The translations under genes and the position numbers were made by a program. The notes below the pieces were generated by a model that was given only the letters and a program-made list of their open reading frames with translations, ran no database searches and was not told the origin of the DNA. A stretch of DNA of 63,758 nt, counting the filler, from Collodictyon triciliatum (lineage: Eukaryota): assembly GCA_043381765.1 (NCBI GenBank). It is 17 parts of 17 records of this genome, joined end to end, with 100 filler letters (N's around TTAATTAATTAA, not from the genome) between each part and the next. Parts side by side here need not be neighbours in the genome. Positions count along the whole stretch, not along the records: positions 41,066 to 45,012 come from JBHJMP010006606.1; 16 more parts are not named here. The stretch is one strand, 5' to 3'. Positions 4,375 through 46,130 of the stretch are shown here, one piece after another; position 1 is the stretch's first letter; every line of letters starts with the position of its first letter.

Positions 4375-7300
4375 ATGATGGGTATATGATATTTTTTTTA
4401 AAACATATTCCTTGTTTGAAGAATAAGACATAGTCCAATCTCATAGTTTTTTTTTTTTTGTCAAGTGGTTATTTCAAAAGAATGCTATTTCAAGACTGAC
4501 CAATATTGGTGCGCTTTGTATCAATAGCAAAGTCACCCACGTCGAATCCTAAGGACATATCAGCCACTCAGAACCTCATTCCTATTACCCCTGCTGCCCA
4601 AAAGGAGGAAAAGAAGAAGAAAAACCTCAGTACATATTTTATTCTAATTTTTGTATAATGGACTATTGCCATCTATCTCAATCATGATCAGAACGACGAT
4701 GGTCCATCAGACAATTCATCCTACTATTCCATTACTGTCAAGTACTAAAAAAAAAATATGTATAAAAATACTTTCATGTTTCAGTCACAAACTTCTTCAA
4801 AAAGAAAGAGGATGACGGTCTCCAAATATCCACCCCATACAACTTTTCACATGATGCACATGTATCTTTTGACTACGAAACTGGAGCTTTCCAGGCAAGT
4901 AAAAATGGAAGCAATTATGGTTTTATTCTCTTCATATGTTTGGGTTTGAGGGGAATACATGCACCGACGATTAATTTTAGTATTTGATAACTATATTATC
5001 TTATGTTGTTACTAGTTATTGATGTGGTTGTGGTTGTATAGCCTCTAGTAACTTACCTAACTCACCCATCGTCAATGACGGATCACAGGGGTTGCCAAAA
5101 GAGTGGGAGGCTCTACTCAACAGCGCCGGAATTTCAAAGGATGAGCAACGCCAAAACCCTCAGGCTGTCATCGATGCTCTGAAGTTTGCGGACCAACAGA
5201 TGAAGGGAACCATCAACGAGACCCTGAAGTCCACCATGATTGTGGATTTGGCGCAAAAATTGGACCAGGTCAACCTCGATGACATCAGACTTGATGACCT
5301 CGTTTCCAGCAAAGAGGACCCCACGAAGCTCTTTTCCAACATGCGCAAAATTGGCGAAGGGTGAGTCCAATCACAGCCACTTATATGCATTCGTCTTTTT
5401 ATTTCATGAGCACCTGCCTGGTGTACTTCGCACGCTATCTTCAAGTTGGTGTACCGCCTAAAGGACTACTTATTCATTCTTCCACCCCTAACCTGAATTC
5501 AGCGCGTCCGGACTGGTGTTCTTTGCCAAACATACGAAGCTTAATCGTGATGTATAGTTTATTTATTTATTAATTTATTTATCTGTTACTTTTCATTTTT
5601 GTCATAAAAGAAGATAATGAAATCAGTGCTGGCTACAATTTCTAGGCCTTCTCACCGCCATAACCTCCAAAATCAACCAAAGATATATCATTTATAGGTT
5701 GCTGTGAAAAAAATCGACATGTCTACAGAGTCAAACCAGAAACTGATCAAGTCGGAGATTTACAACATGAAGAGACTGAAACATCCTTGCATCGTCGAAT
5801 ATATTGCCAGTCATTACTGCGGGAGCGAAATATGGGTCAGAGGCTCAATTGACATTTGCTTGAAACTATCATTAGTATTATTCAGTTTATGTTATATAGC
5901 TGGTGTATTTTCCTCGTTGATCTTTCATCGATATACATCGCCTATGAAACCCAGGTAATCCTCGAGTTTATGGAGGGAGGCTCCCTTACGGAAATTGTAA
6001 CCAGCGAAAAACGGATGACTGAACCACAAATTGCCCGTATTTGCTATGATGTAACTTTTCCTTTGTTTTATCATAGGAAAGAATAAAAAAAAAATCATGT
6101 TTTCCATGATATTAAGAATAAAATAAAGTACATTCTGAATAATCATATACAATGCAAACAATTATACTTCTTCTATATTTGGGCTTTGGTCTAAATTTTA
6201 TGACATAGATCTGTGATTTTACCTCAACCCCGACTAAATATGTGCGTTGTAGTCTCTGTCTGCCCTTAACTTTTTGCACAAAGCATCCATGATTCACAGA
6301 GACATTAAGAGTGACAATATTCTCATCAACTCCAAGGGCGAAATCAAGCTTGGTAATTTTTTTTCTCGAGATCTTTATGTCAACTTTTTTTCCCCTATTC
6401 GTCTGCATTAGTCTAAAGACTTTGTTAAAGCGGACTTTGGATACTGCGCCCAGCTAACCAAGGAAAAGTCTAAACGGTAAATATATAAATACGTACTATC
6501 ATGGTCACCACCGCTCTGGGAAATGCATGTTCATTAAATTTTAGGTTGCACACTCATTTCTGTCATCCCATTTCATATTGTTTCATTTTTTTTTTTTTTA
6601 TTCTTAGAACGAGCGTTGTCGGAACACCCTACTGGATGGCTCCCGAACTTGTTCGAGGTCACGAGTATGGGACAAAGGTTCTATCTTTTTTCTACTATCT
6701 TTTTTCTACTATCTTTTTTCTACTATCTTTTTTCTACTATCTTTTTTCTACTATCTTTTTTCTAGTTATCATTCCTTTGTATCGCTCTTCCGTCTCTCGA
6801 TGAAACCAATATTACTGATGACATTTCTCCTTAAAAGGTGGACATTTGGAGCACTGGTATTCTCATTATCGAAATGACCGATGGCGAGCCGCCCTACATC
6901 GACTACCCACCAATCAGGGTAATCACCTTCATACTCTCTTTTTCCTCATATCATATCATTTTTACTTCTTCGATGCATTACCGCCCTTCAAGCACCGCAC
7001 AGCAGCTCTCCTTCACTCACTCACTCACTCACTCACTCACTCACTCACTCACTCACTCACTCACTCACTCACTCACTCACTCACTCACTCACTCACTTAC
7101 TCACTCACTCACTCACTCACTCACTCACTCACTCACTCACTCACAACTACCACAACTCACCATCATACACTGCATCATACACGCAGGCGCTTTTCCTCAT
7201 CGCGACCAACGGCACCCCAGAAATCAAACAGCCCGAGCGCCTCTCTGCAGACCTGAAGGCCTTTATGCTTTGGTGCCTCACCGTGGACGTGGAGAAGCGC

Positions 7301-8969: not shown

Positions 8970-11807
8970 ATGGCAAATCTTTCAAGATCGATGGCTATCA
9001 GCATCTTGTTTGGTGAGTATTTTATGTAAACAAGATTGTGTGAAAGGAAAGAATTCATATCATATATGCAGGATTGCTCGTGCTCTACCAAGTTGGATCA
9101 CTGAACGGACAAACACACCTGATGCGGACTATAATTGGCCAGGATAATGAAGTTTGGTGTGTGGCTGTTACACCAGATGGAACGAAGGTTGTCTCCGGTA
9201 GCTATCAACAAATTAAAATTTGGAATGTTAGTGATGGTTCCGAAATTCGCTCGTTAAATGGTCATTCAGATTGGGTCTGGAGTGTTAGTGTTACATCCGA
9301 TGCATCAAAGGTGGTGTCCGGAAGCTTTGATGGTACTATCAAAATATGGGAGATTTCGAATGGATCACTGATACGAACCTTAGTGGGTCATACTGGCCGT
9401 GTATACTTCGTTACCATAACACCAAATAACTCGAGGATTGTTTCTGGAGGAACTGATCAAATCGTCAGAATCTGGAATCTTTCCAACGGTGAGACACTTC
9501 ATAGCTTAACCGGACATACACATACCATCGAAATAGTCACTGTGACTCCTGATGGAACAATGGTTGTTTCTGGAAGTAATGATGATACTATCAAAATTTG
9601 GAGCATCGCCAATGGTTCTCTAATCAGAACTCTCATCGGGCACTACAGTTGGATCAGTAGTCTTGATGTAACGCCAGATGGATCTAAAATTGTGTCAGGA
9701 AGTGATGACAGTACAATTAAGATTTGGAACCTCTCTGATGGAACCCTGCTGAAGACGCTGGTCGGTCATACCAGAGATGTCAGAAGTCTAGTAATAACCC
9801 CAGATGGATCAAAAGTTATCTCGGCTAGTTGGGACAGTACAATAAAAATTTGGACTATCTCAGATGGATCACTGGTAGACACACTGACTGCGCACAGTCA
9901 TGATGTTAGAAGTATCGCCCTTACATTAGATGGTTCAAGACTAATATCTGGAAGTTTAGACCAAACCATCAAGGTATGGGATATATGCACACCAGGATTG
10001 AACTATAATTCGGTTTCAAAAAAGTGCGAGAAATGCCCAAAAGGAAGCTACAGTCAAGGTCTGAGTGCTTCGTGCTTATCGTGCCCAGTCGGGACATATA
10101 ATGACAAAGTTGGTGAATCTTGGTGCGCTCCTTGCCCAGTGGGGACATACAACCCCACACCTGGATCGACTAGTCTGGAATCTTGTCTCTCGTGTCCAAC
10201 AGGAACATTCAACAATAGGACTGAGGCGTACCAGTTGTCTTCTTGCGAACCATGTGCAGATGGAAGCTACAGTCCATCTCGAAGTTCCTTCTGTCTCTCT
10301 TGCTTACGAGGGTTTTATCAAAAGGAAGGAATTACCAAGAATCCAGAGTCATGCTTTCAGTGCCCGAAAGGAACTTCAACTTCGAAGCCTGGATCATATG
10401 GGAGCTCTTCATGTATTAAATGCAAAGGTGATTTTGTTGAGCACGAGGATCTCTCTTGTTTCCCAGAGGAATGTACAAATGATTTGGCCAACCAGTATCC
10501 TGCGTGTTTAAACTATACAAAAAATGTTCAGAAAATTGCTAGTTTTTTGAATGTGATCCAGTCATCAAAGTCAGAGATGATGGGATATCAAGTATCTCTG
10601 GTAAATGATATGGCATTCGTATCTGTGCCATTTTGTGCAACTCCGCCATCACCATGCGATGGTGGATACGTTTTAGTTTACCGACGGGAAGCTCGCAAAT
10701 TCACATTCTTGAAAAAGATTAGAAACCCCTTCTTTAATCGAGATGTTAATTTTGGAACATCTATTGATATAAAAGGCAAATATCTTGTTGCTTCTATCCC
10801 TAATTCAATGCGAGATATGGGTTCTAAAGGAAATGTGGCTATATACGAATGGAATCAGCTCTCCGAAACTTTCACCAAGACGTGCTCTGTAACGCCAGGT
10901 AGGTTTAAAAAAGATTCTACCTTCTCAAAGGCAATCAGTGTTGTGGATAACCAAATAGCCGTGGGTTCTCCAGGATACCAGGTATCCGAAGCAGTAAATT
11001 CAGGAAGAGTTTACATTTTCCGAGTTGATTCCTTGAAGAAATGCGATGCTTTGGTTGTTATTAATTCTTTCCTCAAGTTACCCAATGAATATTTCGGTTC
11101 TGCCTTATCGTTCAACAGTGAGTCTATGATTGCTATTTCGAATCGCCCCCTTGATAAGAGCTATGAATCTGTTTTCATCATGAGCAAATCGAACAAAAAT
11201 TGGTATTTGAGTCATACAATATCAGACAAGAAAAAAATTGGGTTTGGGTGGAGGATTCTTTTCGTCAAAGGCCTACTGCACATCTCATCCCTTAAAGATA
11301 GCACCGTTTTACCCAATGCAGGGTCTATAAGTGTTTATGAAGTGAAAACTCAGGGCCATCTAAAGTTGAGTCATACCATAAGACCATTTAGAAGCTTGAA
11401 GGACCAACAATTTGGTTTCAGCTTTGATTCGGATGGAACAAGGCTTGTTGTTGGAACCAATCCTTGCGATGGAGAATCGACATGCACAACAACACGTAAA
11501 TAATTTCCTATGAATATGTGAAAAATATGAAGACATTAGGGTAGTATTTTTATTATTTTTTTTTAAAAAAAATTCAACTGAAGAATAACAATAATGCACA
11601 CCAAACAAATCGATAGGTATCGTCTACGTTTTCAAAGAAATTGATAATCAGTGGATCGAATACAGCAGATACAATAACGAGGCCTCTGATGGCTCTGATG
11701 GCTTTGGATTCGATGTTGCAGTCCTGAATTCAACAACCTTGATATCTGCACCCTACGAAACATCTAAAGGTATTCGCAAGGGAGTTGTCTACGTGGTTGA
11801 AGACTAG
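8970..11807 (+). CDS. Predicted secreted mosaic protein: signal peptide + ~7 WD40 repeats + Cys-rich (GCC2/GCC3, ephrin-receptor-like) repeats + FG-GAP-like beta-propeller
   Basis: Exons 8970-9012, 9072-11495, 11617-11807 (GT-AG, frame kept). N-terminus MANLSRSMAISILFGLLVLYQVGSLNG; WD repeats GH..V..V.VTPDG..VSGS.D.TIKIW; CPxGTY/CxxC repeats; FG(T/S/F)S..I..G..L.VG..GxVYIF repeats; TAG 11805-11807. Confidence 0.85.
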
Positions 11808-21251: not shown

Positions 21252-22101
21252 ATGAAGACCATCGCCACTGTCCTGTTTGCCCTTGTCCTTGTTGGCGCAT
21301 CTGTTGCCGTCCCTGTTCAGCAAGGTTTCCGACAATCCCTGTGCATTTACTCGTCCACTGCATTGAATCTGTCGTTTACATGCATCTGTCTTCAATCCCG
21401 CTTTGTCTGAGCTGCAATGACTCACGCCAGAAACACACAGCCGTCGTAGCCGACTTCACCATCGGCTCCAGCTTCAACACTGACCCGCGCGGAACAGCCG
21501 TCTCCTTTGTCAACGCAGCAACCTCCACGATAGACATCACCATGTACAAGTACGAGGACACAACCATCCACAACGCCATCGTTGCTGCCATCCGCCGTGG
21601 AGTTATCGTAATTGATTTCACGCCTCACAATCATATTCTTTGTTTTGCCTTCTGGACCTCTATGCGTCTGTTTGCTGCTTTTGCTTGTGCACCTTCATTC
21701 TCTGAAAGAGAGAAAGGAAAAGAAAGGAAGATATAAGACAGAGCTTGCGACGCACGCGTCGATACAAGATTGTCATAAGAATAAGCGTTTTATATGCGTG
21801 CGTAAAGGTCCGCGCCATTGTGGACAACACTGAGGCCGGCACCAAGGACTCTCTCGTGAAGGCTCTTGCTTCGGCTGGCGCTTCAGTCCGCACATGGTCC
21901 GGCGTTGGTAGCTTCGACAAGCTCCATTCCAAGTTTTCCGTCTATGACAGCGCAAAAGTCCTGACCGGCACAAACAACTGGACAAACTCGGGTGCCACTA
22001 CAAACATGGAGATTGTCATTGCCTTCGAGGCCGCCTCTGCTGTTGCCACCTTCCAAGGCAACTTTGACACCCTCTACTCCCAGGGCCGTCCAGTCTTTTA
22101 A
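21252..22101 (+). CDS. Single-domain phospholipase D-superfamily (Nuc/PLD6-like) HKD nuclease with signal peptide
   Basis: Exons 21252-21324, 21441-21607, 21808-22101; MKTIATVLFALVLVGASVA; AATSTIDITMY..IHNAIVAAIRRGVI|VRAIVD; HSKFSVYD (HxKxxxxD)..TGTNNWT..NME. Confidence 0.88.
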
Positions 22102-22498: not shown

Positions 22499-23768
22499 TT
22501 ATTCATCTGTGACGCCTTGCTGCGCACTGCTCTGCTCTTGCTGCGAAGAAGATGCTGCGTCCTGCTTTGTTCTTCCCGGTGGCTTTGGTCTCGAAGCCTG
22601 GCGCGTCTCCTGGGGCTGAGCCTGCGATGGTGGAGTAGCTGGCGATGCAGGATTAGACTTGGATTCCCTGGAATCCAGTAGCATGGTGACTGGCCCGTCA
22701 TTGACCAGGGAAACGCCCATCATGGCACCAAACACGCCGTCCTTGACACGATCGGGATTGTATGTTTTGCCCACTTGCTCTACAAATTGCTGGTAAAAAG
22801 TCCGCGAGCTCTCGGAGCTCATGGCGAGGTGGAAGTCAGGCTTGTTCCCTTTGAATGCGCCGTACAGGGTGAACTGACTCACTATGCGTGCATGTGTATT
22901 CAAGGACAAAGGCACATTCATCAGTCAGGTTCTCGGAAATAAATGCTTTCATGACAAAGTGGTAAGCGACCAGAAATACAGAAGGAGGAAGGCTTTGCAA
23001 TCGGATGTTTCGGTTGTTGTTGTCATCGTCGTCGTTTCTTAGTAGCTTCACCACAGTTTAGTGGGAGAAAGGAAAGTCGAAGAGAAAAGGAAGTATAGAG
23101 AGAACTGACGTCAAATTGAAATGTATTGATGCATCAAGGTCGCGGTCGTTATGTGCATTCGCATATTTTACCTAGAAGCACTTCATAGTTCATGTCCACT
23201 ACATTACTTGACCACGGCTTCCCCTCCGAGTTTGGCCATAGGCGGATGTTAAGTATCTTTCGCAGTCTTTTGATAAAGGAGCGAAAGAGAAAGAACCGAC
23301 ACAAATATGTTTACTTTTAAAAATGCTGTTGTTGAAAACAAGAACATATCAGGCGAATACTCAGTGTTGAATACTTATACATATGGGATGTGGGTGAAGA
23401 AATTAGTTGTATAGAATGGGTGTTTTTTTTTTCCTGGTACTGGATTGCAGCAGGTATGTCATCTGTGTGCGGTGATACACAAGAAGAAAATAAACAAAAC
23501 AAAAAAACAAAATAAGGAAAACAAAGCAAAATAGGAGGAAACAAAAACAAAAGACTATGAAAGATAAAGAAAAAGAAAAAGGAAAAGATAGAAATAGAAA
23601 AAGGAAAGAAAAAAGATAATAAATAAAAAAGTACATATAGTCCGTATCGGTTTTTATGTCGTCCCTGCTGATGCCGACGAGAACCAGTATTCCCGGACCG
23701 ATGGAAGAAACAATCTTTCCTTCCACCTCAACACTGGCGCTGCGGACTCGTTGAATGACTGCCTTCAT
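22499..23768 (-). CDS. DTD1: D-aminoacyl-tRNA deacylase 1 with a short low-complexity C-terminal tail
   Basis: [60 protein letters not shown]; three exons. Confidence 0.95.
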
Positions 23769-24787
23769 CTGATCAGAGTGTCTCGGTGAGCAGCGTTTCG
23801 CGGGTGCCTTTGAAACTCTATTGCCATCCCGCTGCGCTGAAGATCGCTTGCTTCAGATTCGTCGCTGTGTGGCGAACCACGATTGGATAGAAGATTCCAG
23901 ATAAGTACATCATATGTGGAAATTATATGTTATTCTCTAAAATGACTCACACAATATAGTGAGAGCGATATATATACCAATATAGTATAATTAATTATAA
24001 TTATATACTGAAAAAATAAAATAAATTGTGAATATTCCGAAACCGTCGCATTCAATTCGCTGTCCTTCTGGCGTTCTTCCAGAACTCATCTTATACCTGA
24101 AATGGATCTGATTGCAAATCAGCTGGTCAAATCACAAGACCATTTTTATTTTTCTGCCTTATTCGATTTTTTTTTGGGTGTAATGTCCATAAAAAGGCGA
24201 TAGAAATAACCAAGAGAAAAAACAGATGGGTGGATACCCACGGCCTAATCAGACCGGCGCGCACTGCTTAGATGTTGCAGCTTTTGAACCCAACTACGAT
24301 TTCTAGTGTAGCATGTTGGTGGTGATGGTGATAGTGATGGTGATGGGGTGCGGTCAAAGATGCTCCTAACTTGAGCATGTCACAAGCAAACCGATTCAGT
24401 TGCTCCAGTATTTGGGGTACTCTGTGCTGATCCGGTTTCTTCAGTTTTTGTTTTATCTTTCCTTGGCTGCCTCCTGCCTTGTGCCAACGATAACAAAAAA
24501 AACAAAAAACAAAAAAACAAAAAAACAAAAAAACAAAAAAACAAAAACAANNNNNNNNNNNNNNNNNNNNNNNNNNNNNNNNNNNNNNNNNNNNTTAATT
24601 AATTAANNNNNNNNNNNNNNNNNNNNNNNNNNNNNNNNNNNNNNNNNNNNTTTTTATGTCTTTTTTTATGTCTTTTTTTATGTCTTTTTTTATGTCTTTT
24701 TTTATGTCTTTTTTTATGTCTTTTTTATGTCTTTTTTATGTCTTTTTTATAGTGTGCCTTTTTAAATCACTGATATTACCCTCTTAG

Positions 24788-40600: not shown

Positions 40601-41403
40601 CACCCCGAAGCCTTGTGATCGTGGTGCCGCACCAAAATGATTACAAAAAAGAAGGAGAAGAAAGGAAGGAGGATACACGCTGCCAAGAAGTCGTGCAGAA
40701 GATGCAGAGTGTGTGGAAAAGGAAGCCCGGCACTGTTCTTTGACGCTTCAACAAGGAGGATGATTGGGATCCGATCTGCTTTGGATGTTGGCTTTTCTTG
40801 CTTCACGGCGCCATTTCCACAATCGGGGCTTTTGTTTGTGCGTGAATTCGGCCGGTCGAAAGTCGTTAAAAAACAAAAAACAAAAAACAAAAAACAAAAA
40901 ACAAAAAACAAAAAACAAAAAACAAAAAACAAAAAACAAAAAACAAAAAACAAAAAACAAAAAACNNNNNNNNNNNNNNNNNNNNNNNNNNNNNNNNNNN
41001 NNNNNNNNNTTAATTAATTAANNNNNNNNNNNNNNNNNNNNNNNNNNNNNNNNNNNNNNNNNNNNTGATGCTTTTATGATGCTTTTATGATGCTTTTATG
41101 ATGCTTTTATGATGCTTTTATGATGCTTTTATGATGCTTTTATGATGCTTTTATGATGCTTTTATGATGCTTTTATGTTTTCATTCGTAATTATAATTTG
41201 ATTGTGTGGACTGCCCTCATTTAATACCGAATCTGATGGCAATCTCTTAAGCAAAACTCATTCAAGATTTATAAAAAAAAAAAAAAATTCTTAACAAAGT
41301 ATATGAAAGCGGAAAAAGGAAAGCACCAAAAGACGATGGCAAAAATAGATGGCGATTTACAGGAAAAGTATATGAAATATCGTGACAAAATAATATGATT
41401 TTC

Positions 41404-41458
41404 CTTCATGATTTTTTTTTTATTCTTGCTTACAATTTTGTGCAACTTTCTTCATGAT
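41404..41458 (-). mobile_element. 37-bp poly(A)-tailed micro-retroposon with 9-bp TSD (CTTCATGAT)
   Basis: TSDs at 41404-41412 and 41450-41458; insert on minus strand AAGTTGCACAAAATTGTAAGCAAGAATAAAAAAAAA. Confidence 0.7.
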
Positions 41459-41561
41459 ATTGAAAATTTATGATAGGGTGAGATAAACGTGGGTGCAGAG
41501 TATACACAGAACAGATATAATGTCACGTCCATATTTCTTCAGGGATACTTTGCCATGAATC

Positions 41562-42498
41562 TTAATCCTGAAAATCCAACCCATATTCCGGATAGAGGTC
41601 TGCAGTGCGAACATTCTTGATAAGAGCTGCATGGTGTGAACGAAGAGACCTTCACTAAAAAAAGAAAATAATAAACGTAGATGATATTATCATGTTACCC
41701 ATTTGCCCAATCAATATCTGAGCGACGTCTTTTGTTTCGTTGTATCTATGCAGATGTTGGATCAGAATGGAATCCTCTGGGGTGTGGCTATGTTTTGCAG
41801 TGAGACGGAAAGTCAATTTGAAGCAGCAATAAAAATGTATTCGCTGGTAATGCTCCACCAACGAAGATGTAATTTTATATTTTATTTATTGTAGGAGTAC
41901 AGACTACGTATCTCCCCATTCAAATCATAGTCCAAGGGTATCAATCTATGTATCTTAAAATTGTATATACGCATAACACGAATTGGAAGCGCACATGAGA
42001 CAGAAAGCATGGTTACGTTGTGTTTGGGAGAGACTGTCTTTTGGGCAGCGGTGCAGAGTGTATTGGCTGTGGAGAACCAGGCGAATGTTCTTGAATCTGA
42101 CCAGGTTGTGCAGTGTTGAAATGAGTAAGAGTGTGCGATTTCGTGGGTGGGCGAGAAATACCTGGGGTGGTTTTGCTGGAGAAGGAGGCTGCACGCAGGC
42201 GCGGTAGAGAGTCAGTTGTCGCTTCGTCCCTTTGCAAAGCGTTGTTTGGCGGCTATTTGTACGGCAGGTCAGAGAAGGCGAGAAGGTAAGAAGGCGAGAA
42301 GGCAAGAAGGGGAAAGGCGAGAGGAGCCGCCTACACGAGGGAGCGGGCAGCCAGAGACGCAAGCACAGGGCAGAGGCGGGAGGGCGGGAGTGCCGTGTGG
42401 CGCTGCAGCTGCTCGGCGGTCTGGGGTGTGGCGGAGGTGGCCAGCAGCCTCACGAGCGAGTCGTGTGCGTCGGTTGTGGTTGTGTGATCCGTGGCCAT
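41562..42498 (-). CDS. SWI5: Swi5/Sae3 recombination mediator with putative N-terminal winged-helix domain (6 exons, ~177 aa)
   Basis: Exons 42498-42335, 42252-42162, 42096-42017, 41945-41901, 41787-41699, 41626-41562 join in frame. C-terminal IQHLHRYNETKDVAQILIGQM|ALIKNVRTADLYPEYGLDFQD is the Swi5 signature. Confidence 0.85.
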
Positions 42499-42603
42499 GG
42501 CTGTGGTTGTGGTTTTTTGTGGTTGTCGTCACTTTATGAGTTGCCGACTGCAGTGTGTGGAAATGAGAGAAGTGAAGGGAAGTGATGAAGGGGCGAGTGG
42601 GAC

Positions 42604-43719
42604 TCAGATGCCCGAGAGGCGCTGCGGGTGCAGGGGCGGGCGGACAAGCGGGGCCAGGGCCGAGAACCCGGGGACGCGTGTCTTTGGGGCGGGGCAGTCC
42701 CTGTTGCTGCCGTCTTCGTCGAAGGCAAAGAGCAGCACGTCGTCGCCTTCACAGCCGAAACCAGAGTCATAATCAAAATCAGAGTCAGAGTCAGAGTCAG
42801 AGTCGGAGGTAGAAGCAGAGGCAGAGGCGGAGGCGGAGGCGGAGGCAGAGGCGGATGGGACGGGACGCGTGCTGGCGAAGCGCTCCATCAGAGAGACGGG
42901 GCCGACAGCAGCAGGCGTGGGGGGCGGAGAGCAGGCGACGTCACAGGCAGGTGCAGATCGAGGCGGCGTGGTGGGGATGACGACAGGCGGGGCGGGGGGA
43001 GGCCATGTGGCGAGGCGGGTTCTGCAGGGCTGTGGCTGTGGCTGTGGCTGTGGGGCGTAGTCGTCGATCAGCAGGGCAGGGAGCGAGTGGGCAGGCGGGG
43101 TGCGCAGGGCGGCGAGGGCGGGCGGGGCGGGGTCTGCGAGGACGGTGAGGGTCAGGCGGTGGGAGCGGCAGCGGACGGGGCGCAGGGCGACGGTGCGGGG
43201 CGAGGCGGCAAAGTGGGCGATGTTGGGGAAGCCGACAGCCACGCGCAGGGTCAGGCGCTCGCACAGGCGGCCGGCGGGGCTGCTCGCGTCTGCCCGGGCG
43301 GCCCGCACCACGCGCCACAGCGGCTGCACGCGCATCAGGCTGGTCAGCACGCGCGCAAGGCCCACGCCGTCCGCATCGTCCGCACCGCCCGCCGCGCCCC
43401 CGTCTGCCGCGTGCAGCTGCACCACGTACGACTCTGCCAGCTGCAGCTGCGGCCGCACCGCCCCCACGCGCACCCCCACGTCCACGCGCACCACAAAGTG
43501 CCGCGGCACCACCTGCGGCCACACCCCCGCCCACTCCTCAAACAGCGCCCCAGGCAGCGTGGCCGGCAGCGGCAGCAGCGCTTCGCGGTCCACGCACACC
43601 TCCCGCCTCCCGGCCCCGCACCGCTCCCCGCTCACCAGCCGCAGAATGCAGTCCACGAGGTCGGTGGCCTCGGGTCCGCTGTGGTTGTGGTTGTGGTTGT
43701 GGTTGTGGTTGTGATACAT
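42604..43719 (-). CDS. ATG13: Autophagy protein ATG13-like (HORMA domain + Pro/Ala/Ser-rich tail), intronless, very GC-rich
   Basis: LAESYVVQL..LARVLTSLMRVQPLWRVVR..TVALRPVRCRSHRLTLTVLAD resembles the Atg13 HORMA pattern (LE.W...L.SL...R..PA.RL...V.T..G.L.LSV.Y); acidic aromatic tail DFDYD..LLFAFDED. Confidence 0.7.
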   Translation of the reverse strand: MYHNHNHNHNHNHSGPEATDLVDCILRLVSGERCGAGRREVCVDREALLPLPATLPGALFEEWAGVWPQVVPRHFVVRVDVGVRVGAVRPQLQLAESYVVQLHAADGGAAGGADDADGVGLARVLTSLMRVQPLWRVVRAARADASSPAGRLCERLTLRVAVGFPNIAHFAASPRTVALRPVRCRSHRLTLTVLADPAPPALAALRTPPAHSLPALLIDDYAPQPQPQPQPCRTRLATWPPPAPPVVIPTTPPRSAPACDVACSPPPTPAAVGPVSLMERFASTRPVPSASASASASASASASTSDSDSDSDSDFDYDSGFGCEGDDVLLFAFDEDGSNRDCPAPKTRVPGFSALAPLVRPPLHPQRLSGI

Positions 43720-44568
43720 AGATGGCTCTAGGGGTTGTGGCTTGGGTCTTGTGTGCTCAGAGTACGGGGTCTGTGGGGGGTTGTGGCGGTTGTGGCGGTT
43801 GTGGCGGTTGTGTGGGTTGTTGCTATGGGGAGGGGGATTCTCATTTCTTCTGTGGGGTGCAAGCACGGAGCCTGTGGGGCGCGGAGGCGGGGGGTTAGTG
43901 TGTCTCGTGGCGTGTGGGTTTGGGTGTGCTGGTGTTTGTGTTGTGAACCGGATCTGCGTCAGTCCTCCGGTGTACTCACTTTGTTATGCGCTGTTCATTC
44001 TTTGCAGGAGCTTTCAGGGTGGGGCGCTGGGCGCGTCGCTTAGTACAACATGGTGGTGCTGTCCGGGTCTGTTCTTGCTTGCGTTCTGGGGTAATTAACT
44101 ATGGTTGAAGAGTAGAAATAAGATGGGCAGCGGCCGCTCGCCAGGTATCTATACCCCCCGCTACTGTTTCACGGAAAAATCTGTGGTGCGCATGTGGCAC
44201 GCTTCAGCTGGTGCGTTGTGCTTCGTCGGGAATTCAGATGTTACCTGTGCATACGCTAAAGGATCATCCAAATTATTAGTGTAATGCATAAGCAACTGTT
44301 TCAGTACTAAATTATATTGTTGAAATGAGAATGTTAAAAAATTATATTGATATTGAGGTATATATAATAAATTCCAGAATAGAATACTCAAAAGCTGCCC
44401 AACAACGCGTTTTTTTTCTCAGGCCAGAAGCAGAAGCAGAGCAGAAGCAGAAGCAGAAGCAGCAGAAGCAGAAGCAGCAGAAGCAGAAGTAGGAGCAGAA
44501 GCAGAAGATCCTGGCGGAAGATCCAGGCAGATCCAGGCAGAACAGACACAAAGAGAAGAGCGCACAGC

Positions 44569-44907
44569 ATGGCAGAGACGCAGCGCCGCACGGCCCTGAG
44601 GCTGTACCGCACGATCCTGGACCTGCACCGGCGCAAGCTGCCGTTCGACATGCGCGTGCTGGGCAACCAGTATGTGCGGGAGGAGTTCCGGCTGCACAAG
44701 AGGGCGCAGGGCTCGCAGCTGCGCATGTTCATGGACGAGTGGCGGCAGTATGCGCACGTGCTTGAGACGCAGGCCGAGGTCACCGGGCAGGACATGGCCG
44801 AGGACGTGCGCCAGGCGCTCTCCCAGGAGCAGCGCGTCCAGCTCAGCAAGCTCAAGGACGAGGCCCGCACCTTTGCAAAGGACGAGGACGACAGCTACAA
44901 GTTGTGA
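44569..44907 (+). CDS. SDHAF3: Succinate dehydrogenase assembly factor 3 (LYR protein), intronless
   Basis: LRLYRTILDLHRRKLPFDMRVLGNQYVREEFRLHK..FMDEWRQY..LSQEQRVQLSKLKDE. Confidence 0.93.
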   Translation: MAETQRRTALRLYRTILDLHRRKLPFDMRVLGNQYVREEFRLHKRAQGSQLRMFMDEWRQYAHVLETQAEVTGQDMAEDVRQALSQEQRVQLSKLKDEARTFAKDEDDSYKL

Positions 44908-44911
44908 TGTC

Positions 44912-45011
<100 letters not shown>

Positions 45012-45463
45012 TNNNNNNNNNNNNNNNNNNNNNNNNNNNNNNNNNNNNNNNNNNNNTTAATTAATTAANNNNNNNNNNNNNNNNNNNNNNNNNNNNNNNN
45101 NNNNNNNNNNNNGTGAGTGAGTGAGTGAGTGAGTGAGTGAGTGAGTGAGTGAGTGAGTGAGTGAGTGAGTGAGTGAGTGAGTGAGTGAGTGAGAGAGTGA
45201 GTGAGTGAGTGAGTGAGTGAGTGAGAGAGTGAGTGAGTGAGTGAGTGACTTTGTACTTGTGTTTTGAACAGTGTATGTGTCCTTTGATCGGAGAAAATAA
45301 AAACGGGAGAATGGATGCTTGTCGGATTGTTGCTCCGGTGATTTCAATCCATGTTTCTGATTATTTATTTTCTTTATTCGATTCAAAGTGTAGCGAGGTT
45401 ATGCCATACAAAGGGGCGGGATGGGAGCGCATGTTAGAGAGCAAACGCGAGTAGGTGAAGACA

Positions 45464-46130
45464 CTACCATGGAGAGACTAGCACCAGAAAGAAATTAGTG
45501 ATAATGAGTAGGTTAGGTGGACGACCCAGCTGGTTAAATGGTTGCAAAGGTAGCAGGGGTTGGATATGCTGTGGGAGATATCGCACGACACATTCCCACA
45601 TCTCTCTTCGCTTGCGGTCAGAGTAGCGAAGAATGCCAGCGTGTTTCAGCAGCCTGTTCAAGAATCTGTATTGCACGAGGCTTTCAAGCATGGCTACATT
45701 GGTTTCTCGTTCGGGTGAATCGTTAGAGCGAGAGAATGCGCGCACACTCCATAAGGACCACAGCATATGTCCCCTTGTGACTGTCCAGAGTATTCTAGAG
45801 TCGTGGGTCATTAGGTATTGTGGGCCAAACAGGATGTCAGACGCGCTGAGTTGATTGGGAGCATAATCAAGCTCAGAGAGCATCTTGTGGGTAAACTCTG
45901 TCACTTTTTGAGCAAGAGAGCACTTCACAAATGTGTGTTCGATATAGTCATCTCCACTATGGCACATGGTGCATTCTGGAGAGGTCGTTGCTGCGTGGAC
46001 TACGCGCGCACCTATCCACAGCTCTCTGTTGGAGATATTGAGAAGTAGGGCGCAGTGTTTCGGGAGTAGCTGAGATATGAGGGCTTACTTCCAGCTTTTG
46101 GCTATCGGCGTGTCTATAACGCCTGTAGTT
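45464..46130 (-). mobile_element. 5'-truncated L1/Tx1-like LINE ORF2 3' end with CCHC zinc knuckle (copy 2)
   Basis: SWK*..LLPKHCALLLNISNRELWIG..CTMCHSGDDYIEHTFVKC (Cx2Cx8Hx4C)..LWSLWSVR; one in-frame stop. Confidence 0.75.

Follow-up and report, generated by a model that had tools for sequence, protein, structure and literature searches.

The eukaryotic strand-exchange proteins have two conserved helper complexes, Swi5-Sfr1 and Hop2-Mnd1. A relationship between the two is already suspected, as is a similar mode of action, with a helical end that lies in the groove of the filament and a DNA-binding part that reaches duplex DNA. Characterised Swi5/Sae3 proteins are 85-91 aa long (Kang et al. 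2015, PMC4402518; this paper and the two others cited below are quoted from part of their text) and consist of a whole two-zipper domain. In the complex known as Swi5-Sfr1C there are two leucine zippers, the second of which bundles with the C-terminal segments (Kang et al. 2015, PMC4402518, in part). The N-terminal region of yeast Sfr1, which belongs to the partner protein, is intrinsically disordered (PMC7093153, in part). In Hop2-Mnd1, N-terminal winged helices are followed by three leucine zippers (LZ1-3), and the C-terminus forms a bundle of helices.

Here we describe a gene of Collodictyon triciliatum that encodes a Swi5/Sae3-family protein and that we read, with moderate confidence, as having an unusual layout, in which a probable winged helix is connected by a Pro-rich tether to half of a Swi5 domain. 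This layout, with its probable winged helix, is new. We found no Swi5 with such an N-terminal domain in a literature search (supplements excluded) or among the ESM Atlas rows displayed, and the parts of Kang et al. 2015 (PMC4402518) quoted here describe no Swi5 with a winged-helix domain.

Gene model and transcripts of close relatives

The window, which is the whole stretch of 63,758 nucleotides that was analysed, contains 34 runs of N. Thirty-two of these are 44 letters long and are paired around TTAATTAATTAA, with a spacing of approximately 4.1 kb. This regular spacing indicates that the window is a chain of pieces of about 4 kb rather than a single stretch of chromosome. The gene lies wholly inside the piece at positions 41066-45012, and its neighbourhood is that piece alone. 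As originally predicted, it is encoded on the minus strand, where the coding region begins with the ATG at 42498 and finishes at 41562 with the TAA stop (41564-41562).

To define the exons we relied on Logan contigs of four runs, compared with positions 41400-42700. The transcript evidence comes from X1 and X2 (organisms A and B of one study), whose records bear a poly-A run and an end resembling a template-switch oligo and are therefore cDNA. The 25-letter end in X1 is presumably the SMART template-switch oligo. The RNA support thus derives from close relatives rather than from the organism of the window, and is read from contigs, which drop rare isoforms. The resulting features are the following:

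Exon 1, 42335..42498, minus strand: 164 nt, codons 1-54 plus 2 bases, GC 70%, with the ATG at 42498; encodes all three helices predicted for the N-terminal domain; its junction (42335/42252) is found in X1 record 4 and X2 record 8
Intron 1, 42253..42334, minus strand: 82 nt, GT..AG, seen in X1 and X2 cDNA
Exon 2, 42162..42252, minus strand: 91 nt; the first 18 codons or so are the proposed beta-hairpin wing, read from the sequence pattern only, and the remainder opens the Pro-rich linker
Intron 2, 42097..42161, minus strand: 65 nt, GT..AG, in X1 and X2
Exon 3, 42017..42096, minus strand: 80 nt, Pro-rich linker
Intron 3, 41788..42016, minus strand: 229 nt, GT..AG, in X1 and X2; includes an unsupported mini-exon (41945-41901)
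Exon 4, 41699..41787, minus strand: 89 nt; encodes the Swi5 domain core, including the LH-x-YNE-x-KD motif
Intron 4, 41627..41698, minus strand: 72 nt, GT..AG, from the cDNA of the relatives
Exon 5, coding part, 41562..41626, minus strand: 65 nt including the TAA; C-terminal end of Swi5, with Y-G-L-D-F-Q-D as the last residues
3' untranslated region, 41502..41561, minus strand: the X1 and X2 cDNA departs from the window at 41502, with a poly-A run 18 nt beyond

Joined together, the five exons form a coding sequence of 489 nt that is in frame, has no internal stop and comprises 162 codons plus the stop, while the remaining two frames of the spliced RNA contain stops. The four joints in X1 and X2 skip 82, 65, 229 and 72 nt and have CT..AC ends on the plus strand, equivalent to GT..AG on the strand of the gene. 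Record 8 of X2 (470 nt) spans the four junctions in one contig, with blocks at 41502-41626, 41699-41787, 42017-42096, 42162-42252 and 42335-42392. Since the coordinates of this record are unbroken over the five blocks, the five exons are joined in a single molecule. In X1 the four joints are spread over two or three separate contigs. Exons 1 and 2 are therefore spliced to the Swi5 exons, as had been proposed, and the splice between them yields exactly the N-terminal string given in the original prediction. A weak alternative acceptor of intron 2 is found at 42066, 30 nt further in and in frame (X1 only; 95 nt skipped, side 27).

The gene model with six exons was not borne out. Its additional exon, of 45 nt (41945-41901), lies inside the 229-nt intron and is skipped by both relatives, whose cDNA shows four GT-AG junctions; the supported model has five exons and 162 aa. 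The mini-exon is the sole in-frame and stop-free candidate among the 15 AG..GT cassettes of intron 3. One open cassette in 15 does not exceed the chance expectation. A minor isoform with the mini-exon may exist.

At the 5' end, the poly-A site of the upstream gene, at 42513, leaves a leader of at most 14 nt for the Swi5 gene. The X1 cDNA terminates no more than one base from the ATG and has a different letter at 42498, and hence the 5' untranslated region and the start codon are not seen in RNA. In-frame Met codons occur only at positions 1 and 141, which means that any AUG-initiated translation of the Swi5 part includes the N-terminal segment as well.

The two relatives are close to the window in sequence. 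X2 shows 8 differences over 443 aligned bases, and no insertions or deletions within the coding sequence were reported in X1 or X2. In X1 the N-terminal exons diverge faster than the Swi5 part, with 12 differences in the 254 bases of exons 1 and 2 and none in the 267 bases of the 3' part. Four changes are listed for exon 1, two of them silent and two non-synonymous.

We used the same transcripts to weigh the possibility that the architecture is an artefact. The contig might be chimeric, with a GC-rich 5' portion attached to an AT-rich Swi5, or the N-terminal exons might be transcribed but untranslated with Swi5, the functional product being a short Swi5 that is initiated within intron 3. Exon 1 does have a GC content of 70% and exon 5 one of 42%, in a window stitched from pieces of about 4 kb, and an ATG lying just inside intron 3 is framed through the mini-exon into exon 4, with an estimated product of about 88 aa. 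However, the fall in GC is gradual and has a similar profile in neighbouring gene regions of the piece, and exons 1-5 occur in a single cDNA contig of an independent data set, with canonical splice sites. In addition, the contigs of both relatives skip the stretch of intron 3 that holds the ATG and the mini-exon (the 229-nt joint), and the peptide encoded before the mini-exon has Pro and Gly residues, unlike a leucine zipper. We regard an artefact of either kind as very unlikely.

The Swi5 half of the protein

Exon 4 (29 aa) matches the Swi5 profile PF07061 with 29.1 bits, above the gathering cut-off of 22.1, and matches no other Pfam family at E ≤ 1. The 76-aa ORF reaches 27.8 bits against the same profile. 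Among the ESM Atlas rows displayed for exon 4 there are only Swi5 clusters, all single-domain. The core helix motif LH-x-YNE-[IT]-[KR]-D is present. The only substitution seen in exon 4, T130I in X2, turns YNETKD into YNEIKD, which we take to be the commoner form of the Swi5 motif. The C-terminal residues Y-G-L-D-F-Q-D have, by position only, the same spacing as F83, L85 and D89 of the mouse protein, with Tyr in place of Phe. A further point in favour of Swi5 is intron 4, whose position and phase recur in an inferred intron of the Swi5 gene of metagenome locus L001. In mouse SWI5, F83 and L85 are required for the binding of RAD51, and the F-x-L-x-x-x-D motif includes D89 (Su et al. 2016, PMC5291256, in part). 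In its above-cut-off PF07061 match, its LH-x-YNE-x-KD core and its C-terminal spacing, the protein of the window is therefore like Swi5 of S. pombe, Sae3 of S. cerevisiae and SWI5 of mouse and human. It is a Swi5 homologue.

A clear Swi5 domain had been predicted, and this stands for its C-terminal half, the first leucine zipper being missing. The match of exon 4 covers positions 40-59 of the 80 in the profile and exon 5 would supply the rest, which identifies the C-terminal half of the domain. Positions 1-39, which correspond to the N-terminal leucine zipper, have no match, and the domain is thus incomplete. When aligned to chain 3viq_B of S. pombe Swi5 (85 residues), exon 4 falls at residues 44-63, and exons 4 and 5 together correspond to approximately residues 36-85. 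Residues 112-162 make up this half; the corresponding region of S. pombe Swi5-Sfr1 builds the second leucine zipper and the bundle of helices at the C-terminus. With only half of a Swi5 domain, the canonical pairing with Sfr1 is not assured.

The place where the first leucine zipper would be is occupied by a linker of 38 residues (74-111), encoded by the end of exon 2 and by exon 3. Eleven of its residues are Pro, which bears out the Pro-rich linker of the original prediction, and exon 3 has no Pfam match. A weak search for longer proteins carrying the Swi5 exon returned one candidate, which did not score.

A domain order with a winged helix at the N-terminus would also be that of a shortened and divergent Hop2 or Mnd1, whose C-terminus merely scores better against the Swi5 profile. 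HHpred matches both Hop2 and Mnd1 to Swi5 (PDB 3viq), and the LZ3wCH part resembles Swi5-Sfr1C (Kang et al. 2015, PMC4402518, in part). Exon 4, however, matches the Swi5 family and no other, and no exon matches an LZ3wCH family. The LH-x-YNE-x-KD core and the C-terminal Y-x-L-x-x-x-D are features of Swi5, and the protein has 162 aa, with a Pro-rich linker in place of three leucine zippers. The specific likeness of the N-terminus to Hop2 and Mnd1 that had been proposed was not recovered either, as the rod-like coiled coil is missing and TBPIP and Mnd1_HTH are both absent from the exon-1 Pfam matches at E ≤ 10, a range in which the HMMER filters drop most matches above approximately 0.1. That the gene is a reduced Hop2 or Mnd1 is extremely improbable.

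The N-terminal segment

All Pfam, fold and atlas analyses of the N-terminus were performed on single exons, with exon 1 separate from exon 2. The best Pfam match of exon 1 (54 aa) is the winged-helix domain of DprA (DprA_WH, PF17782), with an E-value of 8e-4 and 19.8 bits against a cut-off of 22.9, over positions 8-49 of the 61 in the profile. HTH_IclR (E 0.063, 13.5 bits) and HTH_9 (E 0.23, 12.0 bits) follow, also below their cut-offs, and the 65-aa ORF has a sub-cut-off match to the AlkZ-like family (15.5 bits). All Pfam matches of exon 1 are to winged-helix or HTH families, each below the cut-off, with no coiled-coil or generic helical family among them. The ESM Atlas offers a lead in this direction, though no proof. 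All seven cluster rows listed, out of 30 matches, are winged-helix by name or by family, with a best score of 0.91, and the clusters near exon 1 include DUF2582, TrmB, HTH_24/WHD_DprA and HTH_IclR. The ESM recognition of exon 1 is 2954, above the mark of 2300 that is reached by 91 of 100 known-family proteins and by 9 of 100 shuffled ones.

We also modelled exon 1 with AlphaFold2 without an alignment. The model has helices at residues 6-22, 25-33 and 39-53 (mean pLDDT 68.6, pTM 0.40, only moderate model confidence), which coincide with the placement of H1-H3 from our own reading of the sequence. Structure prediction thus returned the three helices of exon 1, but did not return a significant winged-helix match. 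Foldseek against the PDB gave six rows, all with E-values of 6-9 and none significant, with titles that include DNA-binding and transcription complexes (LexA, Zalpha, phage Mu C and RNA polymerase III). When Foldseek and VIA-align were considered together, the model again had no significant winged-helix match and resembled generic three-helix bundles only. Folding exons 1 and 2 as two chains gave a score of 0.02 and the outcome 'no answer', which counts neither for nor against packing of the hairpin on the helices.

Exon 2 alone has no Pfam match. The stretch with which it begins has a strand-turn-strand pattern and starts right where the match of exon 1 to DprA_WH ends, so we infer that the unmatched positions 50-61 of that profile would correspond to the wing. 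Searches of NCBIfam with exons 1, 2 and 4 returned nothing, and the sequence search of the PDB with exon 1 returned one chance-level row (ADRM1, E 1.6).

Searches for relatives of exon 1 with HMMER against 1.84 billion representative proteins gave two matches, neither of them a true relative. Both are tandem-repeat proteins, whose scores sum six to eight stretches, and we discarded them as compositional. No relatives of exon 1 were found among longer proteins in a word-index search, and in a metagenome scan 597 stretches matched the exon-1 pattern and none was confirmed. With two tandem-repeat proteins as the only matches, there is no family to lean on for the N-terminal domain. To see if the DprA_WH match continues into exon 2, we built a local HMM from 77 enterobacterial DprA proteins, which share at least 86% identity in the region. 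It scored exon 1 at -0.6 and exons 1 and 2 together at -1.1, compared with a mean of -0.9 for 200 controls with shuffled exon 2, in a set so uniform that the test had no power. Similarly, hhalign against 25 enterobacterial DprA proteins gave a probability of 0.9% and in another region, from a set too narrow to have power.

These results have to be weighed against a Swi5 homologue whose first 73 residues are an extension of another kind, i.e., a disordered or amphipathic segment, a protein-binding helical bundle or an organelle-targeting peptide, fast-evolving and basic. One human SWI5 isoform has a long N-terminus and offers a comparison for such an extension. Residues 1-73 are rich in Thr (13), Leu (12), Ala (10) and Arg (7), and by our own count residues 14-73 contain one acidic and about ten basic residues. 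This T/L/A/R-rich, basic composition could mimic helical HTH profiles or mark a targeting or disordered region. The sub-cut-off scores of all HTH matches, the likeness of the AlphaFold2 model to generic three-helix bundles only, the lack of relatives among the 1.84 billion proteins and a substitution rate above that of the Swi5 part all agree with an extension of this kind. On the other hand, every sub-threshold Pfam match and every listed Atlas row falls in the winged-helix group, the best E-value is obtained from only 42 of 61 profile positions and the ESM recognition lies above the mark for known families. As for a targeting peptide in particular, there are three Asp within the first 13 positions, and Asp near the N-terminus is unusual for a mitochondrial presequence. 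We consider an extension of another kind rather unlikely, if a serious contender, and a winged helix the probable identity of the N-terminal segment. The winged helix of the original prediction is thus weakly supported, by the type of the exon-1 Pfam matches and of the Atlas clusters listed, with Pfam scores below the cut-off and with no significant fold match.

Comparison with known complexes and possible role

Unlike characterised Swi5, the protein of the window has approximately 73 residues of probable winged helix followed by the linker of 38 residues, and it lacks the first leucine zipper of the two-zipper domain. The overall layout is similar to that of Hop2-Mnd1, in which a winged helix of DNA-binding type is N-terminal and a Swi5-like helical end is C-terminal. 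Here, however, the C-terminus is Swi5 proper and the three-zipper rod of Hop2-Mnd1 is missing, and the resemblance is one of layout and not of demonstrated descent. An evolutionary link to Hop2 and Mnd1 had been suggested, and this analysis gives no support to descent. Most probably, the N-terminal domain was added in this lineage and is not a relic in common with Hop2 and Mnd1.

We infer the role of the N-terminal domain from these comparisons. As a Swi5/Sae3 protein, the product would be a subunit of a Rad51/Dmc1 accessory complex. Residues 1-73 or so would fold as a small winged helix-turn-helix, with the three helices encoded by exon 1 and the beta-hairpin by exon 2. The Swi5 half would either pair with a partner of the Sfr1/Mei5 type or self-associate, and would dock on the recombinase filament through its conserved end. 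The tethered winged helix could then contact duplex DNA, which is the role of the N-terminus of yeast Sfr1 and of the winged-helix pair of Hop2-Mnd1. The N-terminal region of Sfr1/Mei5 would likewise supply the DNA contact of a Swi5 complex. In Sfr1/Mei5 that region is on the partner, whereas in the protein of the window a folded-looking domain, as predicted from exon 1, is on Swi5 itself. In bacteria, the RecA-loading mediator DprA likewise has a small winged helix on a recombination-mediator protein, and its PF17782 domain is the best profile of exon 1, with a score below the cut-off and no descent implied.

A bolder reading, which we consider unlikely, is that of a self-sufficient Swi5, which would have lost the first of its zippers and acquired a winged helix that binds duplex DNA and is attached through a flexible Pro-rich tether. 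Acting as a homodimer or together with a minimal partner, such a protein would reproduce the layout of Hop2-Mnd1, in which one end bears two winged helices and the other a helix bundle that binds the recombinase. If this were true, the DNA-binding role of yeast Sfr1 would sit on Swi5 itself, and the gene would be a natural experiment in which two classes of Rad51/Dmc1 accessory factors are interconvertible. A folded DNA-binding domain on Swi5 would also put the suspected relatedness of the two complexes into one small, testable polypeptide, and would show that the DNA-binding role is able to move between subunits. Should the N-terminus prove to be something other than a winged helix, the gene would encode a Swi5 with a shortened zipper and an extension specific to its lineage, of interest only to annotators of this group of protists.

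We looked for possible partners in the rest of the window. Pfam found none of the Sfr1, Mei5, Hop2, Mnd1, Rad51 and Dmc1 families at E ≤ 0.001 in the 53 of 69 ORFs of at least 110 aa that lie in the other pieces; the remaining 16 ORFs belong to the piece that hosts the gene and were scanned separately by Pfam.

Finally, the metagenome scan with the Swi5 exon returned a single locus (L001), which holds a Swi5 of the ordinary coiled-coil type from a different AT-rich eukaryote. There, the YNETKD exon comes directly after a coiled-coil exon. We considered this locus as a spliced transcript of the window gene and rejected it, as it is a separate, ordinary Swi5 gene. Intron 4 of the window gene has the same place and phase as the donor of L001 as read from its sequence, after 'GKI' plus one base.

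Possible alternative forms of the Swi5 transcript

The cDNA contigs of one of two close relatives (X1) weakly support a second acceptor of exon 3 of the Swi5-family gene, at 42066 rather than 42096 on the minus strand and hence 30 nt into the exon (support recorded as side 27, 'between: not known'). This acceptor is in frame, and its use would drop ten linker residues. A frame opened by an ATG just within intron 3 (41882-42016, minus strand) passes through the mini-exon of the original prediction. If spliced to exon 4, this frame would encode an estimated 88 or so residues, which is an ordinary size for Swi5, and the stretch may either be relictual or serve as an alternative first exon. The contigs of the relatives skip across it.

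Sequence variation and GC content of the Swi5 gene

In the contigs of the second relative (X2), codon 130 (41734) encodes Ile rather than Thr, which turns the YNETKD of the window's Swi5 core into YNEIKD. YNEIKD is the commoner version of this motif. Along the gene (41562-42498), GC content drops steeply from 5' to 3', both in the exons (70, 59, 50, 45 and 42%) and in the introns (56, 49, 36 and 32%). The adjoining gene regions of the same piece (42600-44900) have a similar-looking GC profile.

Genes and repeats on the same piece

The piece that hosts the Swi5 gene (41066-45012) also carries the following features:

41066-41178, start of the piece: tandem 11-mer (TGATGCTTTTA)n
42604-43983, minus strand: ORF of the gene upstream of Swi5, low-complexity, with no Pfam match
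44383-44907, plus strand: LYR-motif protein gene (Pfam Complex1_LYR_2, E 5.5e-16; Complex1_LYR, 6.2e-6)
44910-45012, end of the piece: AAGGAAAGA-like repeat

The spacing between the upstream gene and the Swi5 gene is very tight. A poly-T loose end in both X1 and X2 contigs places the poly-A site of the upstream gene at 42513 (minus strand), only 15 nt ahead of the Swi5 ATG, and the metatranscriptome runs X3 and X4 both show the same 3' end. The repeats at both ends of the piece are probably assembly break points.

Make-up of the window

Throughout the window, pieces of about 4 kb are chained by N44-TTAATTAATTAA-N44 linkers (for example, 40966-41065 and 45013-45112). There are 32 runs of 44 Ns, arranged in 16 pairs, and further N runs of 484 and 203. 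Because piece length declines slowly along the window, the data suggest that the pieces are unplaced contigs ordered by size. Genes on separate pieces are not neighbours.

Outside the Swi5 piece, a Pfam scan of long ORFs returned matches at 5023-5361, 9044-11500, 21706-22098, 22502-23852, 27976-28593 and 45467-46084. The domains found were:

P21-Rho-binding domain
WD40 propeller with Ephrin_rec_like repeats, in an 819-aa ORF
PLD-like domain
D-Tyr-tRNA deacylase, spread across two ORFs
WKF domain
zf-RVT, the reverse-transcriptase zinc-binding domain

Since its match is divided in this way, the D-Tyr-tRNA deacylase gene probably contains an intron.
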